DNA of 58,800 nt, filler included. It is 4 parts of 4 records of this genome, joined end to end, with 100 filler letters (N's around TTAATTAATTAA, not from the genome) between each part and the next. Parts side by side here need not be neighbours in the genome. Positions count along the whole stretch, not along the records: positions 30,685 to 58,800 come from SRR22947725_1189; 3 more parts are not named here. One strand, 5' to 3'. Below are positions 32,399-54,173 of this stretch, one piece after another. The notes under the pieces were generated by a model, which worked only from the letters and a program-made list of their open reading frames with translations, was not told the DNA's origin and ran no database searches. The position numbers were made by a program, and so were the translations under genes. Positions within the stretch are counted from its first letter, which is position 1; every line of letters begins with the position of its first letter.

Positions 32399-32985
32399 TG
32401 GAAGAGCTTAAGAAGAATATAGTTTTAATTGGTGGTGGAGGTCATTGTGTTTCTGTAATAGATATTATCGAAAATGGAAATGAATTTAATATTATAGGTA
32501 TAATAGATACTAGTAATTTTGAAAATAATATTTTAGGCTATAAAATATTAGGAGATGATAATTTAATTCCTGAATTAGTTAATGAAAATACCTATTTTTT
32601 AATTACAGTAGGACAAATAAAGAGTTACTCCATAAGAAAAAATATATCAAAAATTTTGAAACAAAACAATGCAAAACTAGCCACTGTTATATCTCCTCTA
32701 GCTTATGTCTCTAAATATGCATCTGTTGAAGAAGGTTCAATTATAATGAATCACGCAGTTGTAAATGCTAAATCTAGAATTGGAAAGAATTGTATAATAA
32801 ATACTAAGTCGAATATTGAACATGGCGTTTTAATTGAGGACTATTGTCATATCTCTACATGTGCCGTTGTAAATGGTGACGTTATAATTAAAAAAGGATC
32901 TTTTATTGGAAGTAATGCAACTATTTCTAATGGAGTTTTAATTGAAGAGAATAGTATCATCAGTGCAGGTAAATTTATTAAATAA
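32398..32985 (+). CDS. NeuD/PglD-family hexapeptide N-acetyltransferase
   Basis: IGGGGH, left-handed beta-helix repeats, IEH. Confidence 0.88.
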   Translation: MEELKKNIVLIGGGGHCVSVIDIIENGNEFNIIGIIDTSNFENNILGYKILGDDNLIPELVNENTYFLITVGQIKSYSIRKNISKILKQNNAKLATVISPLAYVSKYASVEEGSIIMNHAVVNAKSRIGKNCIINTKSNIEHGVLIEDYCHISTCAVVNGDVIIKKGSFIGSNATISNGVLIEENSIISAGKFIK

Positions 32986-35110: not shown

Positions 35111-36143
35111 AAAACACTTAATTGAAGAAAAGAGTACAATTAAAAAGGCTTTAGAATTGTTAGGTAAAGCTGGTGAAGAAACAATTTTATTTGTCGTTAA
35201 TGGCATGCATGAATTAAAAGGAAGTATAACAGATGGTGATGTTCGAAGAGGTTTGTTAAAAGGCTTGTCAATTAATGATGATATTTATAAGGTTTTAAAT
35301 GAAAAACCAAAGTTTATAAAAAAAGAAAATTATTCTATTGATGAGATCAAAAACTTAAGAGATAACAACTATCATATTATACCAGTTTTAGATAAGAATA
35401 ATGTGATATTAAATATTTTAAATTTTAAGTTATTAAAATCATATTTACCAATAGACTCTGTAGTTATGGCAGGAGGGTTAGGAAGCCGATTAAAGCCTTT
35501 AACAGATAGTGTACCAAAACCATTATTAAAAGTTGGAGATAAAACAATAATAGATCACAATATTGACAGATTAAGGAAGTTTGGAATTGATGATTTTTGG
35601 ATTTCAGTTCGTTATTTAGGAGAACAAATTGAAGATCATTTTAAAGATGGAAAGAGTAGGGATATTAAAGTTGAATATGTTTATGAAGATAGCCCTTTAG
35701 GTACTATTGGAGCTGTAAGTCAAATACGCAACTTTAATCATGACTATATTTTGATAACTAATTCTGATATTTTAACGAATTTAAATTACGAAGACTTTTT
35801 TATTGATTTTATAAATAAAGATGCTGATATGTCTGTGTTAACAATACCTTACAATGTAGATATTCCTTATGCTGTTATGGAAACAAAAGATAATAGAGTG
35901 TTGTCATTTAAGGAAAAACCAACCTACACATATTATTCTAATGGGGGGGTATATCTTATTAAAAAATCGATTTTAGGTAAAATACCTAAAGATCAATTTT
36001 TTAACAGTACGGATTTAATGGAGCAATTGATAAAAGAAAACCTTAAATTAATTTCCTATCCAATGCGTAAATATTGGTTGGATATAGGCAGCCTAAAAGA
36101 TTATGCAAAGGCCCAAGAAGATATTAAGCACATAAATTTTTAG
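35100..36143 (+). CDS. CBS-domain sugar-phosphate nucleotidyltransferase (PtmE/LegX-like)
   Basis: N-terminal CBS (ITDGDVRRG), MAGGLGSRL, PKPLL, WLDIG. Confidence 0.88.
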   Translation: MNYKKHLIEEKSTIKKALELLGKAGEETILFVVNGMHELKGSITDGDVRRGLLKGLSINDDIYKVLNEKPKFIKKENYSIDEIKNLRDNNYHIIPVLDKNNVILNILNFKLLKSYLPIDSVVMAGGLGSRLKPLTDSVPKPLLKVGDKTIIDHNIDRLRKFGIDDFWISVRYLGEQIEDHFKDGKSRDIKVEYVYEDSPLGTIGAVSQIRNFNHDYILITNSDILTNLNYEDFFIDFINKDADMSVLTIPYNVDIPYAVMETKDNRVLSFKEKPTYTYYSNGGVYLIKKSILGKIPKDQFFNSTDLMEQLIKENLKLISYPMRKYWLDIGSLKDYAKAQEDIKHINF

Positions 36144-36144
36144 G

Positions 36145-36867
36145 ATGAAAATATTGATTACAATTTGTGGGCGTGGTGGATCAAAGGGAATTCCAGGGAA
36201 AAATATTAAAGTAATTTCAGGAAAACCTCTTATTAATTATACGATTGAGCTAACAGAAAGAATCAAAGAAAAATGGAATGCTAAAGTCGCACTGTCAACT
36301 GATGATGAATTAATAAAAAAAGCTGCAGAAAAATGTAATTTATTTACAGAATATATAAGACCTTCTGTTTTGGCTTCTGATAGTGCAGGTAAAATAGATA
36401 CTATATTAGATTTACTTACCTATGAGGAATCTTTATTAAATCATAAATTTGATTACATTCTAGATTTAGACATAACTTCACCCCTCAGGACTCTAGATGA
36501 TATTGAGAACTCTTTTGATTTAATACACAATAATCCTAATGCACTCACTTTGTTTTCAGTAAATGCTGCACAGAGGAATCCTTATTTTAATATGGTCGAA
36601 GAGAATTCTTCGGGGTTTTATACTTTAGTTAAGAAAGATGAGCAAGGAGCAGTTATGACTAGACAGAGCGCACCCAAAGTGTATGATTTAAACGCCTCTT
36701 TTTATTGGTACAAAAGAATTTTTTTTGATATGGAATTGAAGTCTCCAATCACTAATAAATCGTTAATTTATGAAATGGATCATGTTTGTTTTGATTTAGA
36801 TCATCCAGTAGATTTTTTGTTTTTAGAGTATTTATTAGATAATAAAAAATTGGATTTTATACGATGA
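36145..36867 (+). CDS. neuA: CMP-nonulosonic acid synthetase (LegF/NeuA family)
   Basis: RGGSKGIPGKN, STDD, TSPLR, RQ.AP. Confidence 0.9.
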   Translation: MKILITICGRGGSKGIPGKNIKVISGKPLINYTIELTERIKEKWNAKVALSTDDELIKKAAEKCNLFTEYIRPSVLASDSAGKIDTILDLLTYEESLLNHKFDYILDLDITSPLRTLDDIENSFDLIHNNPNALTLFSVNAAQRNPYFNMVEENSSGFYTLVKKDEQGAVMTRQSAPKVYDLNASFYWYKRIFFDMELKSPITNKSLIYEMDHVCFDLDHPVDFLFLEYLLDNKKLDFIR

Positions 36868-37799
36868 ATGTATTAATAATTGGATTAGGGTCTATTGCTA
36901 AGAAGCATATTGAAGCTTTACATTCCTTGAAACTTGATTTTGAAATTTATGCTCTAAGATCAAAAAAGAATTCTAAAAAATATCAAGGGGTTACTAATTT
37001 ATATAATTTAAAAAAAGCTAATTTAGTTTTTGATTTTGCTATTATATCTAATCCAACACATCTTCACTTAAAGTATATTGAAATATTAATGCAAAGAGAT
37101 GTGAATCTTTTTATAGAAAAGCCACCATTACATAGTTTACAAGGAGTTGAAAGTTTGATACTTAAATTAAAAGAAAAGAACATATCTACATATGTAGCTT
37201 GTAACCTAAGGTTTCATCCATGTATTCTTTTTCTTAAAAAGTATATTAATGAAAACAATCTAAAAATAATAAACGAAGTAAATGTTTATTGTGGCTCTTA
37301 CTTACCTGATTGGAGGCCAAACACGGATTTTAGAAAAATTTATAGCGCGAACCCAGAATTAGGAGGAGGAGTTCATTTAGACTTGTTTCATGAGTTAGAT
37401 TATACACATTGGCTATTTGGAAAGCCTGTTAATACTCATCGATTTACCAGAAGCGTTTCATCTCTTGATATTTGTTCTATTGACTATGCTAATTATATTT
37501 TAGAATACGAAAAATTTACAGTTAATATTATTCTTAATTATTTTCGAAAAGATTCTAAACGCACAATTGAAATTTTATTTGATGATGAGACATTTATCAT
37601 AGATTTAATTAATAATACAATTATTAACAGTAAAGGAGAAGTTATTTATAAGAATGAAGAATTTAAAATATTAGATACTTATAGAAATCAAATGAATTTA
37701 TTTGTTAATAATTTGAAGAAAAATAAAAAACAAATTAATACTTTCGCGAACTCAATTGATGTCCTTAAAACATGTTTAAGTGGAGAAATTACTAGATAA
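36864..37799 (+). CDS. Gfo/Idh/MocA oxidoreductase (PtmF/ElaA-like)
   Basis: GLGSIA, EKP, YLPDWRP..DFR..YSA...GGGV.LD..HELD. Confidence 0.88.
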   Translation: MNVLIIGLGSIAKKHIEALHSLKLDFEIYALRSKKNSKKYQGVTNLYNLKKANLVFDFAIISNPTHLHLKYIEILMQRDVNLFIEKPPLHSLQGVESLILKLKEKNISTYVACNLRFHPCILFLKKYINENNLKIINEVNVYCGSYLPDWRPNTDFRKIYSANPELGGGVHLDLFHELDYTHWLFGKPVNTHRFTRSVSSLDICSIDYANYILEYEKFTVNIILNYFRKDSKRTIEILFDDETFIIDLINNTIINSKGEVIYKNEEFKILDTYRNQMNLFVNNLKKNKKQINTFANSIDVLKTCLSGEITR

Positions 37800-38523
37800 T
37801 AAAGTTATAATTGTAACAGGAGGAAATGGCTTACTTGGCCGTGAAATTGTTAAAGAAGTATTAGAGAATGGCGGGATTTGTATTAACATTGATATAAATC
37901 ATGAAACAACGAATGATTTGTCCTTACTGAAAGGAGATGTTACAAATCCTGATTCAATAAATAAATGTTTAAAATTAATTATTAGTAAATATAAAAGAAT
38001 AGATGGCTTAGTTAATAATGCGTATCCTAGAACTGCTGATTGGGGAACTAAATTTGAAAATGTTAAATATGATTCTTGGAAGAAAAATATAGATTTTCAA
38101 ATGAACAGTTATTTTTATCTTTCTCAGCAAGTTTCTAAATATATGATAATCCAGAAATCAGGTTCAATAATAAATATGGCCTCTGTATATGGTAGTGTAG
38201 GACCAGACTTTACAGTTTATGATGATACAGAGATGACTATGCCAGTTGCTTACTCAGCAATTAAAGGAGGTATAATTAACTTAAGTCGTTATTTAGCTTC
38301 TTATATAGGAAAGTATAAAATAACAGTGAATACAATATCTCCTGGTGGGATTTTTGATGATCAGAATCCAATTTTTGTCGAAAATTATAATAAAAAAGTA
38401 CCCATGAGAAGAATGGGCTTGCCAAAAGATATATCTCCCACAGTAGTTTTTTTATTGTCCGAAGGTGCAAGGTATATTACAGGTCAAAATATAATTATTG
38501 ATGGTGGTTGGACTGCGATTTAA
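37780..38523 (+). CDS. short-chain dehydrogenase (PtmA/ElaC-like)
   Basis: TGGNGLLG, NNAYPR, YSAIK, SPGGI. Confidence 0.88.
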   Translation: MEKLLDNKVIIVTGGNGLLGREIVKEVLENGGICINIDINHETTNDLSLLKGDVTNPDSINKCLKLIISKYKRIDGLVNNAYPRTADWGTKFENVKYDSWKKNIDFQMNSYFYLSQQVSKYMIIQKSGSIINMASVYGSVGPDFTVYDDTEMTMPVAYSAIKGGIINLSRYLASYIGKYKITVNTISPGGIFDDQNPIFVENYNKKVPMRRMGLPKDISPTVVFLLSEGARYITGQNIIIDGGWTAI

Positions 38524-38542
38524 ATTAATAAAAAATAAAATT

Positions 38543-39688
38543 ATGAGTAAAAAGAAAGTTTTTTGGTGTAAAACATGTTTAAATATGTCTACTAGACCTA
38601 GAATTGAATTTGATTCTAATGGAAGTTGTAATGCTTGTCTTAGAACTGAAGAAAAGAAAACTATAGATTGGGGGAATAGAAATGATGAATTGAAATTATT
38701 ATTAGATAAATATAGATCTAAAGATGGGGGGTTTGATTGTGTAGTCCCATGTAGTGGTGGGAAAGATGGTTCACATGTTGCTTACAATTTAAAACATAAA
38801 TATGGAATGAATCCTTTAGCTGTAACCATAAGACCAGCACTTTCCATGGAGTTAGGAGATAAAAATTTGTATAATTTTATACATTCAGGATATAATCATA
38901 TACATGTTACACCAAACCCAAAAGTTATGCAGGTATTAAACAAATACGGTTTTATCGAAAAAGGTTTTCCATATTATGGATGGTTAATAGCGATTCATAC
39001 AGCAGTCATTAGAACTGCTTATAACTTTAATGTACCATTAATTTTTTATGGAGAAGATGGTGAAGTTGAATACGGCGGTTCAGTAGAAAATAAAGACAGA
39101 GCTTTATATGACATAGATTACATGAAAAGAGTTTACCTTGAAGGGGGGTATGAGAAAGTGTTGAAAAAGGCTGTAGATGATGGGACATTAGAGCCTAATG
39201 ATCTTTATTTTTTTAATTTTCCAGATGATAAAGAAGTGAAGAGAAAAAATCTTTCTTTTACTCATTGGTCATATTTTGAAAATTGGGATCCTTATACAAA
39301 TTATTTGACTGCAAAAAATCATTGTGGTCTTTTAGAAAAGGATGATGCTAATTCTGGGACTTTCACTAATTTTGCTCAAAATGATCAAGCATTATATTCT
39401 TTACATGCATATTTAATGTATTTAAAGTTTGGGTTTGGTCGTGCTACACAAGACGCAGGAATTGAAATAAGAAGAAAAGCTATGACCAGAGAACAGGCTT
39501 TGAATTTGGTTAAAATTTACGATAATATGTATCCAAGTGAACATATAGAAGATTATTTAGAATATTATCAGATGACAAAGGAAGAATTTGATGTTGTAAT
39601 AGATAAATGGGTAAACAAAGATTTATTTGATAAAATTGACGGATTTTGGAGTCCAAAATTTGAAGTTGGACAAGATTTTGAAATTTAA
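38543..39688 (+). CDS. N-acetyl sugar amidotransferase (WbuX/PseA/PtmG-like, PP-loop)
   Basis: CxxC...TRP...CNAC, SGGKDGS, YGE, KFGFGRA. The likely ATG is at 38543. Confidence 0.9.
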   Translation: MSKKKVFWCKTCLNMSTRPRIEFDSNGSCNACLRTEEKKTIDWGNRNDELKLLLDKYRSKDGGFDCVVPCSGGKDGSHVAYNLKHKYGMNPLAVTIRPALSMELGDKNLYNFIHSGYNHIHVTPNPKVMQVLNKYGFIEKGFPYYGWLIAIHTAVIRTAYNFNVPLIFYGEDGEVEYGGSVENKDRALYDIDYMKRVYLEGGYEKVLKKAVDDGTLEPNDLYFFNFPDDKEVKRKNLSFTHWSYFENWDPYTNYLTAKNHCGLLEKDDANSGTFTNFAQNDQALYSLHAYLMYLKFGFGRATQDAGIEIRRKAMTREQALNLVKIYDNMYPSEHIEDYLEYYQMTKEEFDVVIDKWVNKDLFDKIDGFWSPKFEVGQDFEI

Positions 39689-39694
39689 AAAGTA

Positions 39695-40300
39695 ATGAAA
39701 ATAGTCATCGTTGATTATGGAATGGGTAATATTTATTCACTTCAAAGTGCATTAAAATATTTAGGATATAATAGTATTTGTTCAAAAGATCATAATGAAA
39801 TAGTAAATTCAGATAAAATAATTTTACCAGGAGTTGGGTCATTTAAAAACGCGATGGAAAATGTAAAAAAGTTGGAATTAGATTTATCTATTGCAGAAGC
39901 TGTTAGAGTAAAACAGACACCTATATTAGGTATATGTCTTGGTATGCAATTACTAGGAATTAGTAGTACTGAAGATGGTCTTTCTAAAGGATTAAATTTG
40001 TTTTCTGGGACAGTTGACAAGTTTAAAGATAAATCTTTTAAAGTACCACACGTTGGTTTTAATAATGTCCAATATCCTTCTGGAAGTGTTCTATATAATG
40101 GGATTAATGAAAACTCTGATTTTTATTTTGTTCATAGTTACAAAATGCAAACAGATCAAAATGGTGGTGTAGCCTTCTGCTCACATGGCGAAAAATTTGT
40201 TGCATCATTTGAGCAAGACAATATCTTTGGAACTCAGTTTCATCCAGAGAAAAGTCAAACTAACGGTTTGTTATTACTTAAAAATTTTATAAAATTTTAG
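39695..40300 (+). CDS. HisH-like glutamine amidotransferase (WbuY-like)
   Basis: DYGMGN, LPGVG, GICLGMQ, QFHPEKS. Sits inside the polysaccharide locus. Confidence 0.9.
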   Translation: MKIVIVDYGMGNIYSLQSALKYLGYNSICSKDHNEIVNSDKIILPGVGSFKNAMENVKKLELDLSIAEAVRVKQTPILGICLGMQLLGISSTEDGLSKGLNLFSGTVDKFKDKSFKVPHVGFNNVQYPSGSVLYNGINENSDFYFVHSYKMQTDQNGGVAFCSHGEKFVASFEQDNIFGTQFHPEKSQTNGLLLLKNFIKF

Positions 40301-40303
40301 ATT

Positions 40304-41077
40304 ATGAGGAAAAAGCGTTTAATTTTTACTTTACTTTATAATAATGGGCACTTTATGTTAAGTAGAAATTTTAGGCTTCAGAAAGTTGGAGATTTTAATT
40401 GGCTAAAGAAACATTATAATTTTGAAAAAATAGCTTTTTCTATAGATGAACTTATTATATTGGATGTTACAAGAGAAAATAGAAATATTAATGATTTTGC
40501 TTGTTCTGTAAAAGAAGTTATAAAAAACGTTTTTATACCAGTTGCTTGCGGTGGTGGAATTCATACAATGGAAGACGCTAAATTATTACTTAATTCTGGA
40601 GCAGATAAGATAGTTTTAAATAGTTCATTAAATAATAATAAAATACTAGTTAAAAATTTGATAAAGAATTATGGGTCGCAATTTATAGTTGGTTCTGTTG
40701 ATTTTGCCATAGAAAATAATATTAGAAATGTATATATAGAAAATGGTACAGTTAAGATTGAAAAAAAATTAGAAGATTATTTGTTAGATGTGGAACAATT
40801 ATCAATTGGTGAAATATATTTAAATTCAATTCAAAAAGACGGTACAGGACAAGGATATGATATTTCATCAATTAATGATCTTTTAAATAAGATTACAATA
40901 CCAGTTATCTTAGCAGGAGGTGCTGGTAATCATTTGCATTTAATTGATGGTTTAAAAAGAGAGAATATTGATGCTGTCGCCACTGCTAATTTATTTAATT
41001 TTCTTGGTGATGGTTTGCCTCAATCAAGAAAACAAATTCTTGAGAAAAATATAAATATAGCAAAATGGAATATTTAA
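40304..41077 (+). CDS. HisF-like cyclase-fold subunit (WbuZ-like)
   Basis: DEL..LD, GGGI, GADK, DGTGQGYD, GGAG. Divergent N-terminus. Confidence 0.85.
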   Translation: MRKKRLIFTLLYNNGHFMLSRNFRLQKVGDFNWLKKHYNFEKIAFSIDELIILDVTRENRNINDFACSVKEVIKNVFIPVACGGGIHTMEDAKLLLNSGADKIVLNSSLNNNKILVKNLIKNYGSQFIVGSVDFAIENNIRNVYIENGTVKIEKKLEDYLLDVEQLSIGEIYLNSIQKDGTGQGYDISSINDLLNKITIPVILAGGAGNHLHLIDGLKRENIDAVATANLFNFLGDGLPQSRKQILEKNINIAKWNI

Positions 41078-42030
41078 AAAGTGAGATTTGTGAAGTAGAT
41101 TTAATAAATCAAAATATAGTATTCATTGATGGATTAACAAGAGTTGGGAAATCGATGTTAAATGTTTTAGTTGCCTCATTGGATAAACTATCGCATCCAC
41201 AATTTTTTGAACCTTTAGAGCAACTATTACCTATGTACAAAAACGGTAACATGGATAAAAGCTCTATATCTTCATTTTTGCGTTTACAACTAAATGAAAA
41301 ATATTACAATTATTCTTTATCTAGAAATTTGAATTTTAGGTATGATGACTTGACAAGTATTCATAATTCAAACAATCCTAGTTTTTTTTTAAAAAATTTA
41401 TCAAAACTAGATGGAAAAATAGTTAACGATAATACAATTCATCAATTTCAAACCCACGATGTTTTAACACAATATAAGTTTTTTTTAGATTTAAATATAA
41501 ATGTAAAAGTAATTGAGCTTTTTAGAAATCCAATTGATACTATCCATTCTTGGTATAAAAGAGGTTGGGGAAACAGATTTGATAAAGAAGATCCTTTAAG
41601 TTTTACTAGTTTATTCAGATTCAGAAATAAAACTTTACCTCATTATGCAATTGGTTGTGAGGAGAAATATTTTTCACTGAATGAAATGGAAAAATGTGTT
41701 TTTTTACATAACCTACTTCTTAAAATGTCATTACAAGAATACCAGAATCTAACTCGTAAGCAAAAAGAAAATATATTATTAATTAAGTTTGAGGATGTAA
41801 TCTCTAATCCAGAGATAGAAATTGATAGAATTTGTTATTTTTTAAATTCAAGTAAAACAGAGTTTACCGCTAAGGCATTTATAAAAGCTAAAGTACCAAG
41901 AGTTATAAGTTTAGATAAAAGAGTTGAAAAGCTAAATGAAATAAAAAAAGCCGTTAGCCAGGAACTTTACGATGATTTAATAGATTTAGAAAATCAGTTT
42001 AATAATAATTTATATAAATTAATAAAATAA
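41065..42030 (+). CDS. sulfotransferase-fold protein
   Basis: 5'-PSB-like IDGLTRVGKS, 3'-PB-like RNPIDTIHSW and FEDVISNP motifs. Confidence 0.7.
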   Translation: MEYLKSEICEVDLINQNIVFIDGLTRVGKSMLNVLVASLDKLSHPQFFEPLEQLLPMYKNGNMDKSSISSFLRLQLNEKYYNYSLSRNLNFRYDDLTSIHNSNNPSFFLKNLSKLDGKIVNDNTIHQFQTHDVLTQYKFFLDLNINVKVIELFRNPIDTIHSWYKRGWGNRFDKEDPLSFTSLFRFRNKTLPHYAIGCEEKYFSLNEMEKCVFLHNLLLKMSLQEYQNLTRKQKENILLIKFEDVISNPEIEIDRICYFLNSSKTEFTAKAFIKAKVPRVISLDKRVEKLNEIKKAVSQELYDDLIDLENQFNNNLYKLIK

Positions 42031-42035
42031 ATATA

Positions 42036-43133
42036 ATGGTAATTTGGCTTATCGGCTTATCAGCATCTGGGAAAACTACAATAGGTAAGAAATTGATTGA
42101 AAAATTAACCATTTCAAAAGACAAATGGATTTTTCTTGATGGTGATACGGTTAGAAACATGCTTGGTGAAGACTTAGGACATACAATAGAAGATAGGAGA
42201 AAAAATGCTTTTCGAATTAGTAGAATATGTGAATTTTTAAGTTCTCAGAATATCAATGTTGTAGCTTGTGTTCTATCTATATTTCATGACAATCAACGAT
42301 ATAATAAGGAGAATATACCAAACTATAAAGAAGTTTATATAGATGTTGAATTTAATGAGCTTTTAAAAAGAGATAATAAGGAATTGTACAGTAAAGCCAT
42401 AAAAGGTGAAATTACTAATGTTGTTGGAGTAGATATTGAATTTTTGCCACCGTACTCACCAGATTTAATTATAGATAACAATAAATTAAGGTCAGATTTT
42501 GAAGATATAACTTCTAATATAATTTCAGAATTTAAAATTGTAATTGAAAATGATTATTCTTATACGAGTAATAACTTATTAATAAACCCTCATAAATATC
42601 AATATTCAAAATATGAAGGAAAAGCTTTCTTTTACAAATTTGTTGATGATAGAGAGAGTGCAAATATTTTTCTAGGAAAACGACTAGAAAAACTAAAACG
42701 ATATAACTTTTCAGGCCTAACAACATATACTAAAACTCACAAAATTAAAGATAGTTTATTTTTACGAGACTACTTGTTGAATTTATTGGAAAGCAATAAA
42801 GAAAATCTAGATAAAAACTTTAGTATAATTAAAGTTTTAATTCAAAGATTTGAGGTATCCAAGAAACTTTATATAAGCTATGATAGTCTAAGGGTCAGAA
42901 AAAACACTGAAGATTATTCGGAATTATTAAATTATCCACTTTTTTCTTTAGTATTGCAGAAATATTATGAACTTGAAGATAGTGAAGATAGAAAGTTAGT
43001 TTACTTAAACGCAATTTTAAAAACGAATGATATAATATCCTCAATAAAGGAAGATATGATAATTCTTAATGAAATAGAATATTCTATAAGAGCAATCAGT
43101 GGAGAGTTAAACATAATAAGTAGATATTTATGA
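42036..43133 (+). CDS. APS-kinase-fold kinase (Cj1415 cytidine diphosphoramidate kinase-like) fused to an unknown ~190-aa C-terminal domain
   Basis: GLSASGKTT, LDGD, RD.K.LY. Has LSIF and NVVGVDIEF rather than the ISPY and NFTGI..PYE motifs of true CysC. Confidence 0.8.
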   Translation: MVIWLIGLSASGKTTIGKKLIEKLTISKDKWIFLDGDTVRNMLGEDLGHTIEDRRKNAFRISRICEFLSSQNINVVACVLSIFHDNQRYNKENIPNYKEVYIDVEFNELLKRDNKELYSKAIKGEITNVVGVDIEFLPPYSPDLIIDNNKLRSDFEDITSNIISEFKIVIENDYSYTSNNLLINPHKYQYSKYEGKAFFYKFVDDRESANIFLGKRLEKLKRYNFSGLTTYTKTHKIKDSLFLRDYLLNLLESNKENLDKNFSIIKVLIQRFEVSKKLYISYDSLRVRKNTEDYSELLNYPLFSLVLQKYYELEDSEDRKLVYLNAILKTNDIISSIKEDMIILNEIEYSIRAISGELNIISRYL

Positions 43134-43873
43134 TGAATTATTCAATGTTGTTAATTAACAATAACCGCTCAAAGGCCTACTTGCAAAATTTAATACTTAA
43201 TGGGTTTATTCCAAAGAAAATTATACTTCTTAATGATAAGAATATTAATTTACCTGAGCATACAGAAAATGATAAACTAATTAGCAAGAAAACTAATCAG
43301 AAATTTATTCGAGAATTAAAAGATTTGAATATAAAGTTTGATGAGAAAGAACATGTTTTAGCAACAATTGAAAATAATAACATTGATTATGTTATTGTTG
43401 ATACTTTAAATATCAATAGTGAAGAAGTTGTAGCAGAAGTAAAAAACACCCCAACTGATTATTTAGTATATTCAGGCCCTGGAGGAACTATTTTGAGAAA
43501 AAAAATTCTTTCACAAGGTAAAAAATTTATACATGTTCATCCTGGTTGGTTACCTAGTTATAGAGGAAGTACAACAATATATTATTCTTTGCTAATTGAT
43601 TCAGAAGTTGGTGCTAGTGTAATAATATTTGAGGAAGGGATAGATGAAGGCCCTATTTTATATAAGAAAAAATATAAAATTGAAGAAAAAGGTATTGATT
43701 TAGATTATGTTCTTGATCCATTAGTAAGAGCAAAAACACTTGTCTCTTTTTTTAAACAAGAAAAAATCACCATAACTATGCAAAAAGAGGAAGAAAAGGT
43801 AAATACATTTTATATTGTGCATCCATTTATTAAACATGCTTCAATAATAAAATACAATGCCAAAAAAGCATAA
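43130..43873 (+). CDS. formyltransferase-family protein
   Basis: HVHPGWLPSYRG and GIDEGPI formyl-THF-binding motifs. Confidence 0.8.
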   Translation: MMNYSMLLINNNRSKAYLQNLILNGFIPKKIILLNDKNINLPEHTENDKLISKKTNQKFIRELKDLNIKFDEKEHVLATIENNNIDYVIVDTLNINSEEVVAEVKNTPTDYLVYSGPGGTILRKKILSQGKKFIHVHPGWLPSYRGSTTIYYSLLIDSEVGASVIIFEEGIDEGPILYKKKYKIEEKGIDLDYVLDPLVRAKTLVSFFKQEKITITMQKEEEKVNTFYIVHPFIKHASIIKYNAKKA

Positions 43874-44002
43874 TTCTTAATATTTTATGAGATCAGTTTA
43901 TTAAGTAAATCACAAAAATGTGTAAGTATAGATTGTTCTAATAAAAATAATCAGTTCAAATAATAAAAGGCATAAAATACCTAATAAACTGGCACGCTAA
44001 TT

Positions 44003-46390
44003 ATGAGGAAATTTTCAGATAAGTACAAACTTAGTGGGACAAAAGCAGAAACACTAGATTTTCTATCCCAAGCGGGGTATTCGGTTCCAAAAGTTCATTA
44101 TTTCACAGTCAAAGATTGGAACTCTAATAAAGATGCAATTATAGAGAATCTCATGACTCTCTTTTCGAATGATCTATTAGCTATACGAAGTAGTACAAAA
44201 GCAGAGGATACTGCAGATTCTTCAATGGCTGGTGCTTTTGAAAGTATTTTAAATGTTAAACTTGAGAGAGAATCAGTTATATCTGCAATTAATTCAGTTA
44301 TTGATTCTTTTGATGATGATGATAGTAATCAGGTATTAGTTCAACCCATGGTGAAAGATGTTGCTATGAGCGGTGTAGTTATGACTCAAGTTCTTGATGA
44401 CGGTTCTCCATACCACGTTGTTAATTATGATGACAGTTCTGGTTTAACTGATACGGTTACTAGTGGGGCAACTATAAACAAAACAGTTTACTTATATAAT
44501 GGAGTAGATACAAAAGATTTTGACTCCCAATATTTATTAGCTGTTCTGAAACTAATTCGGAATTTACAAAAGACCTTTCCTGATATACCAATGGATATTG
44601 AATTTGCCATTGATAAATCAATGAATATGCACTTATTACAAGTGCGTAAAATAACTACAATTACAAAATGGAAAAAAAATATAAATGATTATGTATCTGC
44701 TAGAATGTTATTCCTAAGGGATTATGTTCAGCAACTAATGCAAAAAAGAACAAATCTATATGGGGACAGGACATTGTTAGGTATTATGCCTGATTGGAAT
44801 CCTGCAGAAATGATAGGAGTTGTGCCTCATCCATTAGCTTTCTCTTTATATAGAGAGCTTATAACCAAAAGAACATGGAGTATTTCTAGGGAAATTATGG
44901 GGTATAGAAAAATGCCAAATACTGAATTGATGGTCTCTTTATTTGGTAGATCATATATTGATGTTAGAAATAGTATAAATTCATTTCTACCTGAGGGTCT
45001 TTCAAAAAATATTTCTGAAAAATTGGTTAATGCATACATAAACAGATTAGACAATAACCCTCATTTACACGACAAAATTGAATTCGATGTAGTTCATACT
45101 TCATACGACTTCGATTTTGATAAGAATTTTGAAAGCAGATATAGTGGGTTATTAAATAAAGAAGAATTACTATCATATAAGGGCTTGTTACGAAATATTA
45201 CGAAGAAAGCTATTGACAATTCATATGACAACAGTTTAAATAGCTCAATTCGTGATATAGAAAAACTAAAAGTAATACAGAGTAAGGAAATTATTTATGA
45301 GAAAAACTCATTTTCAATAGCTGATAGAATTAATACACTTATAGATGAATGCATAAAATATGGTACAATTCCATTCGCAATTATTGCGAGACATGGCTTT
45401 ATTGCAGAGAATCTATTACGCTCCGCAGTAAGTAATAACGTTATATCTGAAAGTAGAATTAAAGAATTTAAAAGTAGTTTTAATACTGTAGCTGGAGATT
45501 TAAGTGATGATTTTCAAAAAGTTTTAAATCGAGAGATTTCTAAAGAAGTTTACCTAAATAAATATGGGCATTTAAGACCTGGGAGTTATGATATATTATC
45601 ACCAAATTATTCAAACAGGAAAGACTTATTTGATGGAATGCCTAGAGACTCTTCTGATTCCTATGATAATTTTGAATTAACAGAAAAAGAAATATCTGCT
45701 TTTAATATTATACTTGGAGAGCATGGTTTTGATAATACCAAGGCAGATGATATTATTAATTATTCAATAAAAGCAATTAAAGGGCGTGAATACGCAAAAT
45801 TTATTTTCACAAAACATTTATCCGATATTCTTGAGAGTATTTCAGAATGGGGAGTTAATGAAGGGTTTAGCAGGGGTGATATGTCAATGCTAACGATTAG
45901 TGATGTATTAAAAGTGCTTTTCACACCACTAACAGATGATGTGAAATCTTTTTATGAAAAGAAAATAAAAAAAGCAGAAACTAATTTTAAGATTGCATCT
46001 TCTTTTAAATTGAGTTACTTGATTAGATCTGTACGTGATGTCTATATTGTTCCAATGCAAAGAAGTACTGCAAATTTTATAGGGGATAAAAGGATAGAGG
46101 CAGAAATAATTGAATTGAATCCATATTTAACAGAAATACCACCTTTAGAAAACAAGATAATTTGTATTGAGGGAGCTGACCCTGGATATGATTGGATATT
46201 TACACGAAACATAGCTGGATTGATTACAAAATATGGTGGAGCAAATTCTCATATGGCAATTCGTAGTGCTGAATACAACTTACCGGCCGCAATAGGCTGC
46301 GGTGAGCAAACTTATAACAGAGTAGTTTCAACTAAAAAGTGTCTTTTAGATTGTCAAAGGAAAAATCTTGAACCAATTGAATTATCATAG
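44003..46390 (+). CDS. PPDK/PEP-synthase-family kinase, L-glutamine kinase (Cj1418-like)
   Basis: ATP-grasp AIRSS..ED...S.AG.F.S, DIEFA, LLQVR. Central MPDWNPAE and YGHLRPG.YDI. Phospho-His domain ADPGYDW and GGANSHMAIR. Confidence 0.88.
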   Translation: MRKFSDKYKLSGTKAETLDFLSQAGYSVPKVHYFTVKDWNSNKDAIIENLMTLFSNDLLAIRSSTKAEDTADSSMAGAFESILNVKLERESVISAINSVIDSFDDDDSNQVLVQPMVKDVAMSGVVMTQVLDDGSPYHVVNYDDSSGLTDTVTSGATINKTVYLYNGVDTKDFDSQYLLAVLKLIRNLQKTFPDIPMDIEFAIDKSMNMHLLQVRKITTITKWKKNINDYVSARMLFLRDYVQQLMQKRTNLYGDRTLLGIMPDWNPAEMIGVVPHPLAFSLYRELITKRTWSISREIMGYRKMPNTELMVSLFGRSYIDVRNSINSFLPEGLSKNISEKLVNAYINRLDNNPHLHDKIEFDVVHTSYDFDFDKNFESRYSGLLNKEELLSYKGLLRNITKKAIDNSYDNSLNSSIRDIEKLKVIQSKEIIYEKNSFSIADRINTLIDECIKYGTIPFAIIARHGFIAENLLRSAVSNNVISESRIKEFKSSFNTVAGDLSDDFQKVLNREISKEVYLNKYGHLRPGSYDILSPNYSNRKDLFDGMPRDSSDSYDNFELTEKEISAFNIILGEHGFDNTKADDIINYSIKAIKGREYAKFIFTKHLSDILESISEWGVNEGFSRGDMSMLTISDVLKVLFTPLTDDVKSFYEKKIKKAETNFKIASSFKLSYLIRSVRDVYIVPMQRSTANFIGDKRIEAEIIELNPYLTEIPPLENKIICIEGADPGYDWIFTRNIAGLITKYGGANSHMAIRSAEYNLPAAIGCGEQTYNRVVSTKKCLLDCQRKNLEPIELS

Positions 46391-47008
46391 ATGTATAGAT
46401 TTGGGATAACGATGCGGATTACAAACGACACTAGCTATGATGAACCAAGAGATTCAATAGCAAGTGATTGGTCGAAATATATGTTGTCAACTTTTCCAGA
46501 TTCCCAATTTATATTTATTCCTAATATTGAAGAAGATGTTGTGCATTATATTAATAAATGGAATATTGATGTGCTAATATTAAGCGGAGGAGATGATCTA
46601 GGAATTTTTCCCGCTCGTGATAAAACGGAAACATTGGCTTTTTTATATGCTTTAAAAATGAGAATCCCTATCGTTGCGGTTTGCCGAGGCTTACAACTGG
46701 TTCATTCCTATTATGGAGGGAAATTAAAATCTGGTGATAATAAGTTTATAGAAAAACATCGAGCAACAAAACATTTAATTAATATGGATAATCATTCTAT
46801 TGAAGTTAACTCTTATCATACTTATAAAATTATAGAAGAAACAGTCAATAAGGATTTTGAAATATTTGCTAGATGTAAAGATGATAATTCGATTGAAGGC
46901 TTGAGGAATAAACAAATACTAGGAATGATGTGGCATCCTGAGAGAGATGAGTCAATTGCAAATTGGAACAAATTATTAATTGAGAAATTTATTAAAAATG
47001 AAAGATAG
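46391..47008 (+). CDS. class I amidotransferase-fold gamma-glutamyl-CDP-amidate hydrolase (Cj1417-like)
   Basis: GIT.R, LSGGDD, VCRGLQ, NSYH, MWHPER. Directly follows the kinase. Confidence 0.85.
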   Translation: MYRFGITMRITNDTSYDEPRDSIASDWSKYMLSTFPDSQFIFIPNIEEDVVHYINKWNIDVLILSGGDDLGIFPARDKTETLAFLYALKMRIPIVAVCRGLQLVHSYYGGKLKSGDNKFIEKHRATKHLINMDNHSIEVNSYHTYKIIEETVNKDFEIFARCKDDNSIEGLRNKQILGMMWHPERDESIANWNKLLIEKFIKNER

Positions 47009-47744
47009 AGCATTAATATTAGCAGCAGGGAGAGGTTCTCGAATGGGTGCGGAAACTGCATTAAAACCAAAATGTCTAACCGTGTTGGCCGGGAAACAAC
47101 TTCTCCAATGGCAACTTGATTCCCTAAAAGGTGCTGGAATTGAAAATGTAACAGTCGTTCGTGGGTATAGATCAGAAATGTTGCAAGGTGAATTTTCTGT
47201 AATAAATAATATAAGATGGAGTGATACTAATATGGTATATTCTTTGTTTTGTGCGCCTTCATTTAATGGTAATACAATAATATCATATTCTGATATTGTT
47301 TATAAAGAAGAGCATATAGTAAAGCTAAATAAATCAAATAAAGATATAACTATTACTGCGGATAAGTGTTGGGAAGAATTATGGAGACTGCGATTTGAAG
47401 ACCCTTTTGATGATGCAGAAACATTTAAAAGTGATGGAGGGAAACTTCTTGAAATTGGTGGGAAGACTCGAAACGCAGATGATATTGAAGCGCAGTATAT
47501 GGGGCTTTTGAAATTAACTAAGAATGGATGGAATATTATTTATGAAGTATTTCAATCATTGACAGACAAGGAGAAAGATAAAATGGACATGACAAGTATG
47601 TTAAACCTTCTGTTAAATAAGGGAATTAATATTAATGTAGTATTTGTTGAAGGAGGATGGTGCGAATCTGATGAGTATTCTGATGTTTTAGCCTATGAAA
47701 AAGAACTAAAGCTAAACAAAAACTGGAAACATAATTGGCGATAA
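46998..47744 (+). CDS. LicC-family cytidylyltransferase (Cj1416 phosphoglutamine cytidylyltransferase-like)
   Basis: ILAAGRGSRM, KPKCL, TNM.YSL, SYSDI, W..RF.DP..DAE, QYMGL. ATG at 46998. Confidence 0.85.
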   Translation: MKDRALILAAGRGSRMGAETALKPKCLTVLAGKQLLQWQLDSLKGAGIENVTVVRGYRSEMLQGEFSVINNIRWSDTNMVYSLFCAPSFNGNTIISYSDIVYKEEHIVKLNKSNKDITITADKCWEELWRLRFEDPFDDAETFKSDGGKLLEIGGKTRNADDIEAQYMGLLKLTKNGWNIIYEVFQSLTDKEKDKMDMTSMLNLLLNKGININVVFVEGGWCESDEYSDVLAYEKELKLNKNWKHNWR

Positions 47745-47840
47745 CTTGCTTATCTCTGTAAAATATACCACTGCTGGTTGATGTCTTTTAATTAAATTAG
47801 GTAGCTTTTTAATGAATAGAATTAATTTTGAGAAAATAGT

Positions 47841-48596
47841 ATGATAGCCAAAGTAATTGAAATTGCACACCAAGCTTCATTTGAGGTTTTAAAAATTTAT
47901 AATAAAGGTATAATTCAAATACAATCAAAACAAGATAATTCTCCTGTAACTGAAGCTGATTTAATATCAAATAAAATTATTATCAATGGTTTAAGAAATA
48001 TATCTAATTACCCTATACTTACTGAAGAAAGTCCTGTGGAATATAAAGTAAGAAAAAATTGGACTAAATATTGGGTAGTAGACCCTCTTGATGGGACGAA
48101 AGATTTTATTGCGAAAAACGGAGGTTTTACTATTAACATTGCATTAATTGAAAATACCAAGCCTATTATGGGAGTGGTTCTTGTACCGGTTACTGGAGAG
48201 GTATATTATGCGGAACTAGGCAGAGGTTCATACAAGAATAATAAAAAAATTTTTAATAATTCAAAAAGAATTGATTTAATTGGAGCAGATAGTATTCATC
48301 ATTCTACAAAAGAGGTAGAATTGTTTTTTAAGAAACATAATATATCCAAAGTTCTAAAGTTAGGGTCTTCTATAAAAATTTGCAAGTTGGCTGAGGGAGA
48401 AGTTGATGTTTATCCCAGATTAAATGGAACAAAGGAGTGGGATACAGCTGCTAGCCATATCATAGCAAATGAGGCGGGTTGTCGGCTTATTGATACTGAA
48501 TCAAAAAAAGAATTAACTTACAATAAAAAGAGCCTGAAAAACAATCATTTTATTGCTATAAGGAACAATTTAGATTTGAAAAACGATTTTTACTAA
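47841..48596 (+). CDS. cysQ: 3'(2'),5'-bisphosphate nucleotidase
   Basis: SPVTEAD, TEE, VDPLDGTKDF, GSSIK, YPR..T.EWDTAA. Confidence 0.92.
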   Translation: MIAKVIEIAHQASFEVLKIYNKGIIQIQSKQDNSPVTEADLISNKIIINGLRNISNYPILTEESPVEYKVRKNWTKYWVVDPLDGTKDFIAKNGGFTINIALIENTKPIMGVVLVPVTGEVYYAELGRGSYKNNKKIFNNSKRIDLIGADSIHHSTKEVELFFKKHNISKVLKLGSSIKICKLAEGEVDVYPRLNGTKEWDTAASHIIANEAGCRLIDTESKKELTYNKKSLKNNHFIAIRNNLDLKNDFY

Positions 48597-51581: not shown

Positions 51582-52999
51582 TTAGCATTACAAGAATAAA
51601 AGCTGTTTTTTCAGTTATAAATATTATCATCTTTACTTTCATATATCTTTTTTATGATAATTTTTCGATGGGAGATTTAAGAGCCCTTGAATGGTATTCA
51701 TTGATTGTCTTTTTTGTTTTATTAAGTCTCAACTTAATTATCTATAAAAAGTTTCATATTGTAATTATATTCCATGTCTTATATTTTGTGTTCTTATATG
51801 GAAAAGTATTCGGTCATCTTTTCAATTTAATGGATATCTTTGATTTCCAGTCATTGGTAATTACTACTTTTAGTATATCAACTATTAGTGAATCTATTTT
51901 AATTATTACGTTATCACTTCTGTATTTTAACTTATTTTCTATTTTCTTTATTCCAAAGAAAATAAAGCTTCCGGAAATGAACAAAAACTTTATCAAGGTT
52001 GGTAAATTCTTATTGCTCGTTACACTTCCATTTGTACTGTATAAACTGATAGTGGATTTATTATATATTTTACAAAATGGATATCTAAGTTATTATTTAG
52101 GAGCAAATCAATCAATCAATTATTACATTCCTTTTATGGATTTGTTTTATAATTTGTTTTTATTAGGTTATTTTATATTTATTGCAGGGATTCCTAATAA
52201 GAAAACATTCCAAGTTTATTCTTCAATATTTATTATAATATCAGTACTATTTTCCTTAAAAGGGATGCGAAGTGCTGCAATTCTTCCAATTTTAGCTTAC
52301 TTCTGGTTTTTAGGAAACTTTTATAAGATAAATGAAACAAAACTCTTGAGACGTTTTTTTATTGTTGGTTTTTTGCTCATTGGATTTTCTTATATATTAG
52401 TGAGGCAGAGGTCAGATGTAGATACTTCTTTCAAACTCAAAAATGTATTAACGATTTTACCAGAATCTGGCACAGGTATTAATTTATTGAATCTTTATAT
52501 TGATAATCGACAAAACCTACCTGAAAATAAAATTGGTTATATTTTTGAACCTTTAACTTTTCCATTTATATATATTCAAAATTACAAGGAATTCCGAGGG
52601 GGACAAAGTGTTGAATTAGTGAATCTTAGAGAAAGCTTGAATTACAGGTTAACATACTACCTTAACCCACAATATTTCCTAAATGGTCAGGGACTTGGGA
52701 CGGGATATATTCCTGAGATGTATGAATTTGGATATCTAGGAATTGTTTTTTTTAGTGCTTTATTGACTATGTTGTTTGGTGTTTTATATAAATACTTTAA
52801 ATATTATTTGGTAGCACTTTTTAGTTATAAAATAATAACCCATATTCTTTTTCTACCTCGTGGACCTTTTTTTATTAGCTTTTGGTATATACTAAAATTT
52901 CTTATTCTTTTTTATATTGTAATGTTAATATACAGAATATCAAAATCAAAATTGAAAAACGGAAAATTTTTAATAAAACACATCGATGCGAAAAATTGA
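51578..52999 (+). CDS. wzy: O-antigen polymerase
   Basis: About 11 TMs, G.RS motif, periplasmic loop with G.GLG...I.E. Confidence 0.8.
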   Translation: MISITRIKAVFSVINIIIFTFIYLFYDNFSMGDLRALEWYSLIVFFVLLSLNLIIYKKFHIVIIFHVLYFVFLYGKVFGHLFNLMDIFDFQSLVITTFSISTISESILIITLSLLYFNLFSIFFIPKKIKLPEMNKNFIKVGKFLLLVTLPFVLYKLIVDLLYILQNGYLSYYLGANQSINYYIPFMDLFYNLFLLGYFIFIAGIPNKKTFQVYSSIFIIISVLFSLKGMRSAAILPILAYFWFLGNFYKINETKLLRRFFIVGFLLIGFSYILVRQRSDVDTSFKLKNVLTILPESGTGINLLNLYIDNRQNLPENKIGYIFEPLTFPFIYIQNYKEFRGGQSVELVNLRESLNYRLTYYLNPQYFLNGQGLGTGYIPEMYEFGYLGIVFFSALLTMLFGVLYKYFKYYLVALFSYKIITHILFLPRGPFFISFWYILKFLILFYIVMLIYRISKSKLKNGKFLIKHIDAKN

Positions 53000-54173
53000 T
53001 ATATTTTCTGTAATGAATAAGGCTCTTTATAATGAATTGACCGTAGATAAGTATGATGTAAAAAATCTTTTTCCAAGAAGATTGTTTGGAATTATTCCTC
53101 CAAGACCAATAATTCTAATGCAAAAAATAAAGAATGATTATATTCTATTATTTGGGTTAGCGATAATCTCGTTATTATGGATTATTATTTTTCCTTTAAT
53201 AACCGTATATAAATTTTTCAAATACTTGTTTCTAATAAATGGCAATATACATGACGAAAGCATAGGGTCTAATCTATGGATTGGTACTGGAGATAAAATC
53301 CCCCAATTGCATAAAGGGTTTAGTAAAGATGTTAGTCCAAATCATATTTTAGTTGTTCCTTGGATTAAAATATCAAATAAATTAGATTCAGATGATCTAA
53401 AAAAAATTGATATGTTAAATTATTTGTCTGCATTAGATTTAATAAAAGCATTTTGGTTTTCAATAGTAGGAGCTGTAAAATGGGCTATTTTTATAAAAAG
53501 ACCTGTAAATATATTACAAGAATATATTTTGTTTGATTTTTTTTTGCTGTCAATTGTATTAGAAAAACTAAAGAATCAAGGAGTAGATTGTTTTTGGTAT
53601 ATAAACCACTATGATAGGTGGGCTGTACTTATAGATAGTGTATCAGAGTCAAAAAATGTTATGGTCCAGCATGGATATTTGAATTCAAGTTATAACTTCC
53701 CATATAAGAATAAAAATTTAAAGAAAGTGTATGTTCTAGATGAAGTAAGTATTGATATTTTTAATAAAAACATTAATTGTTCAAATACCAAAATAATATA
53801 TGAAATACTTGGTAGCACTATTAGTCTTAGGGAAATAGAAAACGCTGAAAAATCTATTTTAATTATTTCAAGACCTGCTCAAATTCAATTTGATGTTAGC
53901 TTAATTTTAGCTATTTTAAATACTGAACTAGATTTGAAAGTATATATTAAACCACACCCTAAGTTTGATAAAAATCCATACAGGGATTACTTCTCTAAAT
54001 ATGAGAAATGTTATCTTATAGAGGATAGTGATTTTTATCCTAAGGTTAGTTTAGTAATAAGTGGATATTCAACTTTAGCTATTGAATACGAGCTAAAAGG
54101 GGTTAAGGTAATTTGGATTGCAGAGGAAACTATCGAATCAATATTGGCTAAAGTTGAAAAACATATTTGTTAG
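52986..54173 (+). CDS. putative GT-B glycosyltransferase (possible nonulosonic-acid transferase)
   Basis: QHG, IKPHP and YSTLAIE motifs resemble CMP-sugar-dependent GT-B transferases. Confidence 0.5.
   Translation: MRKIDIFSVMNKALYNELTVDKYDVKNLFPRRLFGIIPPRPIILMQKIKNDYILLFGLAIISLLWIIIFPLITVYKFFKYLFLINGNIHDESIGSNLWIGTGDKIPQLHKGFSKDVSPNHILVVPWIKISNKLDSDDLKKIDMLNYLSALDLIKAFWFSIVGAVKWAIFIKRPVNILQEYILFDFFLLSIVLEKLKNQGVDCFWYINHYDRWAVLIDSVSESKNVMVQHGYLNSSYNFPYKNKNLKKVYVLDEVSIDIFNKNINCSNTKIIYEILGSTISLREIENAEKSILIISRPAQIQFDVSLILAILNTELDLKVYIKPHPKFDKNPYRDYFSKYEKCYLIEDSDFYPKVSLVISGYSTLAIEYELKGVKVIWIAEETIESILAKVEKHIC

Follow-up and report, generated by a model that had tools for sequence, protein, structure and literature searches.

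A putative phosphoramidate-decoration module with a sulfotransferase-fold transferase candidate in a nonulosonic-acid polysaccharide locus

The closest described relative of the locus reported here is the O-methyl phosphoramidate (MeOPN) pathway of Campylobacter jejuni (Cj1415-Cj1422), whose donor is given as 3′-phospho-CDP-amidate, a derivative of cytidine diphosphate (CDP) (PMC6429109). The glycan phosphoramidate transferase lacks biochemical characterisation even in Campylobacter, to judge from a 2025 Raushel-group paper in which the enzymology of MeOPN decoration is still listed as future work (PMC12409886). We analyzed a stretch of 58,800 nucleotides (the window), made of four parts joined end to end, of which positions 30,685 to 58,800 come from record SRR22947725_1189, and within it a block of seven genes at 41065-48596. 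Judged from its gene content, this locus is probably a so far undescribed form of phosphoramidate system; no description of its arrangement was found in the literature searched, a scope that did not extend to supplements or to the primary Raushel-group papers.

An earlier note on this DNA, made from the letters alone, had read the block as seven consecutive co-directional genes in the order sulfotransferase fold, adenosine 5′-phosphosulfate (APS)-kinase fold, formyltransferase, pyruvate phosphate dikinase (PPDK)-like kinase, class I amidotransferase, LicC-like cytidylyltransferase and cysQ. All seven open reading frames (ORFs) were found in this order on the + strand, tightly packed, with a 13-nt overlap between wbuZ and the first of them and subsequent junctions of 5, −4, 129, 0, −29 and 96 nt, and each of the folds named was matched by Pfam or NCBIfam (Table 1). 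The block appears to share with the MeOPN locus the same four donor-enzyme families, arranged as a cassette within a surface-polysaccharide locus. Unlike it, the block has a kinase fused to a second domain (X) and a formyltransferase-like partner, includes a sulfotransferase-fold gene and cysQ, and belongs to a locus of the Wzx/Wzy kind that also encodes an acetamidino nonulosonic acid, where the MeOPN locus is of the ABC-type capsule kind. It also lacks the S-adenosylmethionine-dependent methyltransferase of the Cj1419/Cj1420 step, as already remarked in the earlier note: no methyltransferase domain was detected in ORFs of at least 100 aa between 31262 and 58656, although the locus may run beyond the window end.

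The other obvious comparison is with bacterial glycan sulfation cassettes, which combine ATP sulfurylase, APS kinase, a sulfotransferase dependent on 3′-phosphoadenosine 5′-phosphosulfate (PAPS) and CysQ. These share with our block the sulfotransferase-fold family (at up to 69% identity), the position after wbuX-hisH-wbuZ, the kinase superfamily, CysQ and an overall logic of 3′-phosphonucleotide donor, transferase and bisphosphate nucleotidase. The block differs in having glutamine kinase, hydrolase and cytidylyltransferase in place of ATP sulfurylase, which was not found in the window, and in the clade of its kinase, which is the one associated with glutamine kinase (P-clade) and not the APS-kinase clade found beside ATP sulfurylase or CysDN (S-clade).

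The reading that we favor, and that we hold to be slightly likelier right than wrong, is that the module makes 3′-phospho-CDP-amidate, that the sulfotransferase-fold enzyme moves the phosphoramidyl group to a nonulosonic-acid glycan and that CysQ clears the remaining bisphosphonucleotide. The block would thus be self-contained and would attach a phosphoramidate-type group to a Wzx/Wzy polysaccharide in which nonulosonic acid is present. Homology predicts that CDP-amidate would be produced by the glutamine kinase, the cytidylyltransferase and the gamma-glutamyl-CDP-amidate hydrolase, and that the Cj1415-type kinase would add a 3′-phosphate to it, yielding the PAPS look-alike 3′-phospho-CDP-amidate. 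Gene context suggests that the sulfotransferase-fold protein would bind this donor via its 3′- and 5′-phosphate loops and transfer the phosphoramidyl group, most likely to the acetamidino nonulosonic acid encoded just upstream, after which the leftover cytidine 3′,5′-bisphosphate would be hydrolysed by CysQ. More speculatively, the formyltransferase-like protein and X might tailor the product instead of the MeOPN methyltransferases, perhaps by N-formylating the amidate nitrogen. The Raushel-group paper on the kinase reportedly notes an analogy to PAPS.

The predicted synthesis of 3′-phospho-CDP-amidate by the four enzymes is well supported by sequence homology and by gene context. The glutamine kinase (glnK) matches NF004508/PRK05849, which we take to be the model of the Cj1418 family, with 905.5 bits (cut-off 501) over residues 9-792 of 795. 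For the amidotransferase/hydrolase (gat), the best NCBIfam match is NF045546 with 106.6 bits, below the cut-off of 250 and followed by the next family at 40.9 bits; this score is typical, because NF045546 was also the best match, at 63-188 bits, for all 23 gat homologues tested among the 65 found beside glnK. The cytidylyltransferase (cyt) shows a general NTP_transf_3/LicC-like fold only, its best solved relative being LicC (1jyk, E = 8.8e-10), and a sequence search of the PDB returned no solved relatives of Cj1415-1418, only generic phosphoenolpyruvate synthase, GATase, LicC and APS kinase structures. In a preprint on Borgs, the same enzyme trio has been assigned by structure.

We surveyed glnK neighborhoods in one genome per species, which gave at least 361 relatives, and kept the best 80 loci, spanning Bacteria, the Candidate Phyla Radiation (CPR) and Archaea (loci and genomes are hereafter numbered with L and G). 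Next to glnK, gat was present in 68/80 loci, cyt in 73/80, both in 67/80 and a kinase of the window type in 38/80. The four donor-pathway genes that the earlier note had recognised are thus typical of a widespread glnK-gat-cyt(-kinase) cassette. Since loci were called by a crude longest-ORF rule and many are cut off at contig ends, the counts of absence in this survey are upper bounds on true absence. Natural fusions were also encountered: of glutamine kinase with a cytidylyltransferase-like domain in L030-L032, L036, L038, L040, L042 and L063, of glutamine kinase with 3′-kinase in L062, and of cytidylyltransferase with the amidohydrolase in L057.

The assignment of an APS-kinase fold to the second gene holds for residues 1-147 of 365, to which the APS_kinase match is confined; the whole gene is a fusion whose C-terminal ~195 aa (residues 171-365), domain X, fall outside known families. 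The kinase part matches NF004041/PRK05541 with 174.4 bits, above the cut-off of 127, whereas its match to apsK (TIGR00455, 118.9 bits) is below the cut-off of 138.7. A kinase-domain tree of 73 rows separated two clades with an SH-aLRT support of 99 each, 52 rows adjoining glnK, gat or cyt and 21 adjoining ATP sulfurylase or CysDN. The window kinase sits deep inside the former, the P-clade, its nearest relative being that of L085 (75% identity). Placement of the L131 and L132 kinases is unsure, as they formed a long branch in the APS-kinase clade and then grouped with the glnK-associated kinases after five kinases were added.

The AlphaFold2 (AF2) model of the sulfotransferase-fold protein has a mean predicted local distance difference test (pLDDT) of 94.6, and Foldseek ranks TPST2 (3ap1, E = 2.3e-6) and the sulfotransferase domain of CurM (4gbm) highest, with the TPST2, CurM and SULT matches ranging from E = 2e-6 to 6e-4. 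Invariant residues in the family are G23, G28, K29, R154 and P156, and R26 and S162 are nearly invariant; of these, R26, G28, K29, R154 and S162 fall in what we take to be the 5′-phosphosulfate-binding and 3′-phosphate-binding loops. Both fold and motifs correspond to PAPS enzymes, and they also fit the main rival explanation, in which one locus would hold two independent decorations: an ordinary PAPS-dependent sulfotransferase would sulfate the nonulosonic acid or a neighboring sugar with PAPS from housekeeping CysDN/CysC, CysQ would remove the 3′-phosphoadenosine 5′-phosphate left behind, and the phosphoramidate would be moved by another, unrecognised enzyme. We regard this as less likely, yet a true sulfotransferase stays a serious rival because the two contexts intermix on the family tree, with a pair at 69% identity, and some homologues lack a cassette.

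Gene neighborhoods bear on this choice from both sides. A homologue of the sulfotransferase-fold gene is present in 3/80 glnK loci (L027, L064 and L071). We also looked from the sulfotransferase side, using 50 loci on metagenome contigs found by searching with this gene. The order wbuX-hisH-wbuZ-sulfotransferase-fold gene recurs in many of them. Beside the gene, a phosphoramidate cassette or P-clade kinase is encoded in 17 loci and a PAPS cassette in 13 (ATP sulfurylase with an S-clade kinase, often also a pyruvate-kinase barrel protein and cysQ); two loci have a pyruvate-kinase barrel only and 18 nothing recognisable. Among these 18, the contig extends 6 kb or more to either side of the gene in just two cases, L088 and L124. 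These counts indicate that a donor cassette of one kind or the other stands beside the gene in almost every informative locus, which argues against the rival. So does the position of the gene directly beside P-clade kinases in distant hosts, namely an archaeon (L071), Pelagibacterales (L064, L160 and L165) and Gammaproteobacteria (L027 and G150). Of the informative loci of phosphoramidate context, 22 of 23 encode a kinase, versus 38/80 glnK loci (binomial p = 1e-6, with near-duplicates included and relatedness uncorrected). No other conserved transferase candidate was detected among the phosphoramidate loci carrying the sulfotransferase-fold gene, and the remaining unassigned proteins of the window resemble glycosyltransferases. 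Homologues of unk21 and unk35, two families from other loci that are candidates for a Cj1421/Cj1422-type MeOPN transferase, were not found in the window.

Whether a PAPS route is present at all can be asked of whole genomes. Neither type of ATP sulfurylase (PF01747 or CysD) was found in the eight genomes in which the sulfotransferase-fold gene lies beside a phosphoramidate cassette (G150, G003 and six Pelagibacterales), which favors the sulfotransferase fold as the phosphoramidate transferase. One of them is G150, a gammaproteobacterial genome in a single contig of 1.995 Mb with the order hisH-wbuZ...glnK-gat-cyt-kinase-X/formyltransferase-sulfotransferase, which contains neither PF01747 nor CysD; apart from the kinase of the cassette, none of its proteins matches APS_kinase with more than the 20 bits that P-loop noise can give. 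PF01747 and CysD are likewise absent from G003, the partial archaeal genome of L071. A homologue of the gene occurs in 13/401 Pelagibacterales genomes, all without PF01747 (0/13) and CysD (0/13), and glnK is found in six of these 13, always near the gene. A homologue scan of the class Alphaproteobacteria gave 1/401, the query genome alone. In places where ATP sulfurylase is absent, the cassette is also accompanied by further sulfotransferase-fold paralogues, one matching PF13469 (427 aa) and one PF00685.

At the level of residues, in the loop corresponding to the 5′-phosphosulfate-binding loop, the position after the invariant Gly-Lys is Ser or Thr in 17/17 phosphoramidate-context proteins versus 2/12 PAPS-context proteins (Fisher p = 3e-6), the latter having Ala in seven, Leu in three and Ser in two. 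This comparison uses 29 of 53 rows, leaving aside 23 whose context was unclear and one that was truncated. S30 of the window protein follows the phosphoramidate-context pattern.

Several observations weigh against phosphoramidyl transfer by this enzyme. Allowing for relatedness, the loop-residue contrast shrinks to three independent pairs, of which two are concordant and one unchanged (p = 0.5), and the rule is one-sided, with Ser also present in L102 and L103, both of PAPS context, and in G285, a genome that has a homologue together with Sat and APS kinase but not glnK. The sulfotransferase-fold tree intermixes both contexts, requiring at least 6-10 switches. The nearest homologue of the window protein (L084, 69% identity) adjoins cysQ, an S-clade kinase and ATP sulfurylase, and enzymes as close as these two would normally share one donor. 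The genome of L027 (G002) encodes CysD and CysNC, so PAPS is available there, and the search for ATP sulfurylase in the window's own host covered the window only. Homologues without any cassette within 10 kb exist in L088 and L124, and the 11-kb contig of L108, a locus of phosphoramidate context, lacks a kinase. Among the 13 Pelagibacterales genomes, seven carry the homologue with neither glnK nor ATP sulfurylase, and therefore either some members of the family use an unnamed donor or these genomes are incomplete. Other candidate transferases stand beside phosphoramidate cassettes elsewhere, being TagF-like in 10/80 loci, sulfatase/lipoteichoic acid (LTA)-synthase-like in 13/80 or of unknown families. 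Finally, the gat match to NF045546 falls short of its curated cut-off.

Many of these points count in favor of an ordinary PAPS-dependent sulfotransferase: L084 and 12 more metagenome loci adjoin ATP sulfurylase and/or an S-clade kinase, with cysQ in L084, L090 and L092; the contexts are mixed on the tree; L088 and L124 lack any cassette, and G285 has Sat and APS kinase but not glnK; G002 has CysDN/CysNC; and the TagF-like and sulfatase/LTA-synthase-like neighbors could supply the separate phosphoramidate transferase. The earlier note's assignment of phosphoramidate transfer to the sulfotransferase fold thus keeps the adjacency to P-clade kinases, the alternation of cassettes and the eight genomes without ATP sulfurylase on its side, while L084, the mixed tree and the cassette-less homologues speak against it.

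The alternative candidates include TagF-like CDP-alcohol phosphotransferases, a family to which C. difficile FtaD belongs, an enzyme that uses CDP-N-methylthreonine according to a bioRxiv preprint. Their genes lie directly beside phosphoramidate cassettes in the 10/80 loci and in L087, a hint that this family, too, takes CDP-linked donors. By analogy, these enzymes may use unphosphorylated CDP-amidate. None is present in the window, and they would release cytidine monophosphate, needing neither a 3′-phosphate nor CysQ. The TagF-like genes were seen in L003, L005, L007, L020, L022, L023, L029-L031, L080 and L087, some of these loci having no 3′-kinase.

CysQ, which the earlier note had included in the module, is tied to the phosphoramidate pathway independently of any sulfotransferase, because cysQ lies within the cassettes of L062 and L067, between gat and cyt. 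Both encode a P-clade kinase, a protein of unknown family and a methyltransferase of the MT_a family, which is the one most often seen in MeOPN-like loci, and neither contains a sulfotransferase-fold gene or ATP sulfurylase. This placement fits a role for CysQ in clearing cytidine 3′,5′-bisphosphate after transfer from a 3′-phosphorylated donor.

Domain X and the formyltransferase-like protein define a second feature of the cassette. In the 80 glnK loci, the X profile was found in 24 and the formyltransferase-like gene in 25, both occurring together in 24 of the 25. Elsewhere X is a separate gene of ~190-240 aa beside the formyltransferase-like gene. Fusions with the kinase, as in the window, were also seen in L004, L085, L098, L101 and L104, whereas in L056, L069, L075 and G150 the fusion partner of X is the formyltransferase-like protein. 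The formyltransferase-like gene (25/80) and MT_a (20/80) were never found together (0/80), from which we infer that X and the formyltransferase-like protein may be an alternative tailoring step; on this distribution, the pair looks like a replacement for the MeOPN methyltransferase, and would constitute a newly defined obligate pair offering an alternative to O-methylation. Two exclusive cassette flavors can thus be told apart, one with MT_a (20 loci, 16 with a P-clade kinase) and one with X and the formyltransferase-like gene (25 loci, 10 with the kinase). The latter flavor has carriers in culture, among them Alteromonas ponticola MYP5, Christiangramia gaetbulicola DSM 23082 and Roseivirga thermotolerans.

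In an alignment of 23 formyltransferase-like sequences, H137, G139, P142, G146, D172, G174 and H231 are invariant. Like folate-dependent sugar N-formyltransferases, the family keeps the HPGxLPxxRG motif with catalytic H137 and D172, and its substrate would likewise be a nucleotide-linked amine. It differs from them at the N-x-H motif, whose Asn is present in the alignment's two ordinary formyltransferases but replaced by His135 in nearly all members of the family, and in having a C-terminal YYIIHPxLKH motif of its own, X as partner and no C-terminal domain. N-formylation of the nucleotide-linked amidate nitrogen would be chemically reasonable, if speculative. As to X, no Pfam match was obtained even at E ≤ 5, no Foldseek match at E ≤ 0.001 and no usable match in the ESM Atlas. 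Its AF2 model is helical (pLDDT 90.7), and since it shows only a generic resemblance to half of (alpha/alpha)-barrel hydrolases (best VIA Z 10.6, below the informative level for helical proteins), no function was assigned. The predicted complex of X with the formyltransferase-like protein, computed with alignments unused, scored 0.00 and weighs neither way.

This pair is at the heart of a second rival explanation, which we consider quite improbable: X and the formyltransferase-like protein, or some other unrecognised protein, would be the real transferase or would turn the donor into a different end product, and the sulfotransferase-fold protein would act on a small-molecule intermediate such as a nonulosonic acid activated with cytidine monophosphate, possibly with another 3′-phosphonucleotide donor. 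The pair does occur in 15 glnK loci without a P-clade kinase and in many loci without the sulfotransferase-fold gene. The latter gene itself travels with nonulosonic-acid genes and not with the glycosyltransferases, which vary between loci. The seven Pelagibacterales with neither known donor route, among them G942 with the kinase only, are also compatible with it. Against it, the His/Asp pair and the HPGxLPxxRG motif typical of folate-dependent formyltransferases are retained in the formyltransferase-like protein, and X has neither a catalytic signature nor an informative fold match.

Taken jointly, these data raise a broader picture that we put forward tentatively, at a little under an even chance. 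Phosphoramidyl transfer from 3′-phospho-CDP-amidate would be a function for which a PAPS-type sulfotransferase fold was recruited, either repeatedly or through promiscuity. In archaea and in marine bacteria, SAR11 among them, cassettes for the sulfate donor and for the phosphoramidate donor would be exchangeable partners of one and the same transferase. The nonulosonic acid would then bear either a sulfate or a group with a phosphorus-nitrogen (P-N) bond, and the X-formyltransferase-like flavor would give a P-N decoration chemically unlike MeOPN, possibly N-formylated. If phosphoramidyl transfer by this fold is correct, its repertoire gains a phosphoryl-type transfer and the reason for the 3′-phosphorylation step of Cj1415 is explained. 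P-N glycan decorations would moreover be widespread, given a glutamine kinase in at least 361 species genomes of Bacteria and Archaea, and would extend to abundant ocean bacteria that cannot make PAPS. In any case, the locus offers a small, soluble transferase candidate of well-understood fold.

Table 1. Annotated features of the locus, with window coordinates and best family matches.
Feature	Position	Strand	Match
WbuX/HisH/WbuZ-like acetamidino (glycosyl amidation) genes	38498..41077	+	TIGR03573 353.7, TIGR01855 233.1, TIGR03572 217.1 bits
Sulfotransferase-fold protein, 321 aa, candidate phosphoramidyl transferase	41065..42030	+	PF00685 Sulfotransfer_1 39.5 bits, cut-off 22
Cj1415-type 3′-kinase domain (cytidine diphosphoramidate kinase-like), N-terminal half of fusion	42036..42545	+	NF004041
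Domain X, helical, C-terminal half of kinase fusion	42546..43133	+	No family match
Formyltransferase-like protein, 247 aa, N-terminal domain type only	43130..43873	+	PF00551 Formyl_trans_N 43.4 bits, cut-off 26.1
Cj1418-type L-glutamine kinase, pyruvate phosphate dikinase (PPDK)-like, 795 aa	44003..46390	+	NF004508; PF01326 (PPDK_N) and PF00391 (PEP-utilizers)
Probable Cj1417-type gamma-glutamyl-CDP-amidate hydrolase, class I amidotransferase fold	46391..47008	+	GATase/Peptidase_C26; NF045546
Probable Cj1416-type cytidylyltransferase, LicC-like	46980..47744	+	PF12804 NTP_transf_3 50.8 bits
CysQ 3′(2′),5′-bisphosphate nucleotidase	47841..48596	+	TIGR01331 256.7 bits, cut-off 228.8

Upstream of the block, Pfam matches define a nonulosonic-acid block at 31262-38523 (DegT aminotransferase, acetyltransferase, NeuB, 2-epimerase, CBS-nucleotidyltransferase, CMP-sugar synthetase and two reductases), which is closed by the acetamidino genes WbuX/HisH/WbuZ directly 5′ of the sulfotransferase-fold gene. 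On the 3′ side, cysQ is followed by genes for Wzx, a GT4 glycosyltransferase and Wzy. After these come genes for a capsule-synthesis-like protein, an acetyltransferase and an epimerase, and then those for a WaaS/CpsH glycosyltransferase and RmlA. No terminator-like sites were found on the + strand between the seven ORFs, in a scan that gave no more matches than shuffles of this AT-rich DNA, and the promoter/terminator scan of the locus as a whole likewise gave a number of matches no higher than in shuffled sequence. Two downstream proteins were considered as phosphoramidate transferases and rejected. The product of 55934-56959 is a WaaS/CpsH glycosyltransferase (270 bits), and that of 52986-54173 resembles PFTS-motif and capsule-synthesis proteins, the closest clusters with a name in the ESM Atlas, a likeness that serves as a lead only. 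The latter, a 395-aa protein without Pfam or NCBIfam match, may be the nonulosonic-acid transferase.

The description of the locus as Flavobacteriia-like in the earlier note does not extend to its host. The glutamine kinase is 70-75% identical to Bacteroidota relatives, a likeness limited to the locus, whereas the flanking housekeeping genes (recA, recX, alaS, cinA, pgpA, thiL, pmbA, darP and mlaA) point to a gammaproteobacterial host, as does the identity of RecA. The latter is 75% with G150, which is of the class of a Gammaproteobacteria metagenome-assembled genome, and 71% with Alteromonas, compared with 68% for a genome of Bacteroidales and 65% for one of Pelagibacterales. The GC content of the locus is 26-32%, versus about 40% at the window start.

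Further observations concern the relatives of the sulfotransferase-fold gene. The second sulfotransferase-fold family, the 427-aa proteins matching PF13469 with 27-41 bits, lies beside a P-clade kinase and the first sulfotransferase-fold gene (L064:14649-15932, L123:7236-8519, L065, L129-L133 and L165), and the first family occurs in tandem duplicate in L130-L132 and L160-L162. A protein consisting of a pyruvate-kinase barrel only accompanies PAPS cassettes and some phosphoramidate cassettes (L064:13678-14652, L129, L084, L090, L092, L102 and L116-L120), and in some cases, L077 being an example, is fused to ATP sulfurylase; in L064 and L129 it was considered as an ATP sulfurylase, which was ruled out by Pfam matches to the barrel alone. 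In L085, the closest phosphoramidate-type relative of the window, a Capsule_synth-like protein is encoded between wbuZ and the sulfotransferase-fold gene, and a 580-aa sulfatase/phosphodiesterase-family protein (L085:11093-12835) between the latter and the kinase-X fusion. The seven Pelagibacterales genomes with a homologue but neither glnK nor ATP sulfurylase, CysD being also absent, are G1017, G1043, G942, G995, G899, G1016 and G1072 (L157, L159, L163, L164 and L166-L168); in G942, a P-type kinase alone stands beside the sulfotransferase-fold gene.

Lastly, the window contains three sites (12709-12808, 25434-25533 and 30585-30684) at each of which two runs of exactly 44 N are separated by 12 bases. 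These sites look like masked copies of one repeated element; the description of the stretch gives 100-letter fillers between its parts. One of them lies at the boundary between the housekeeping genes and the polysaccharide locus and interrupts an ORF at 29753-30640.

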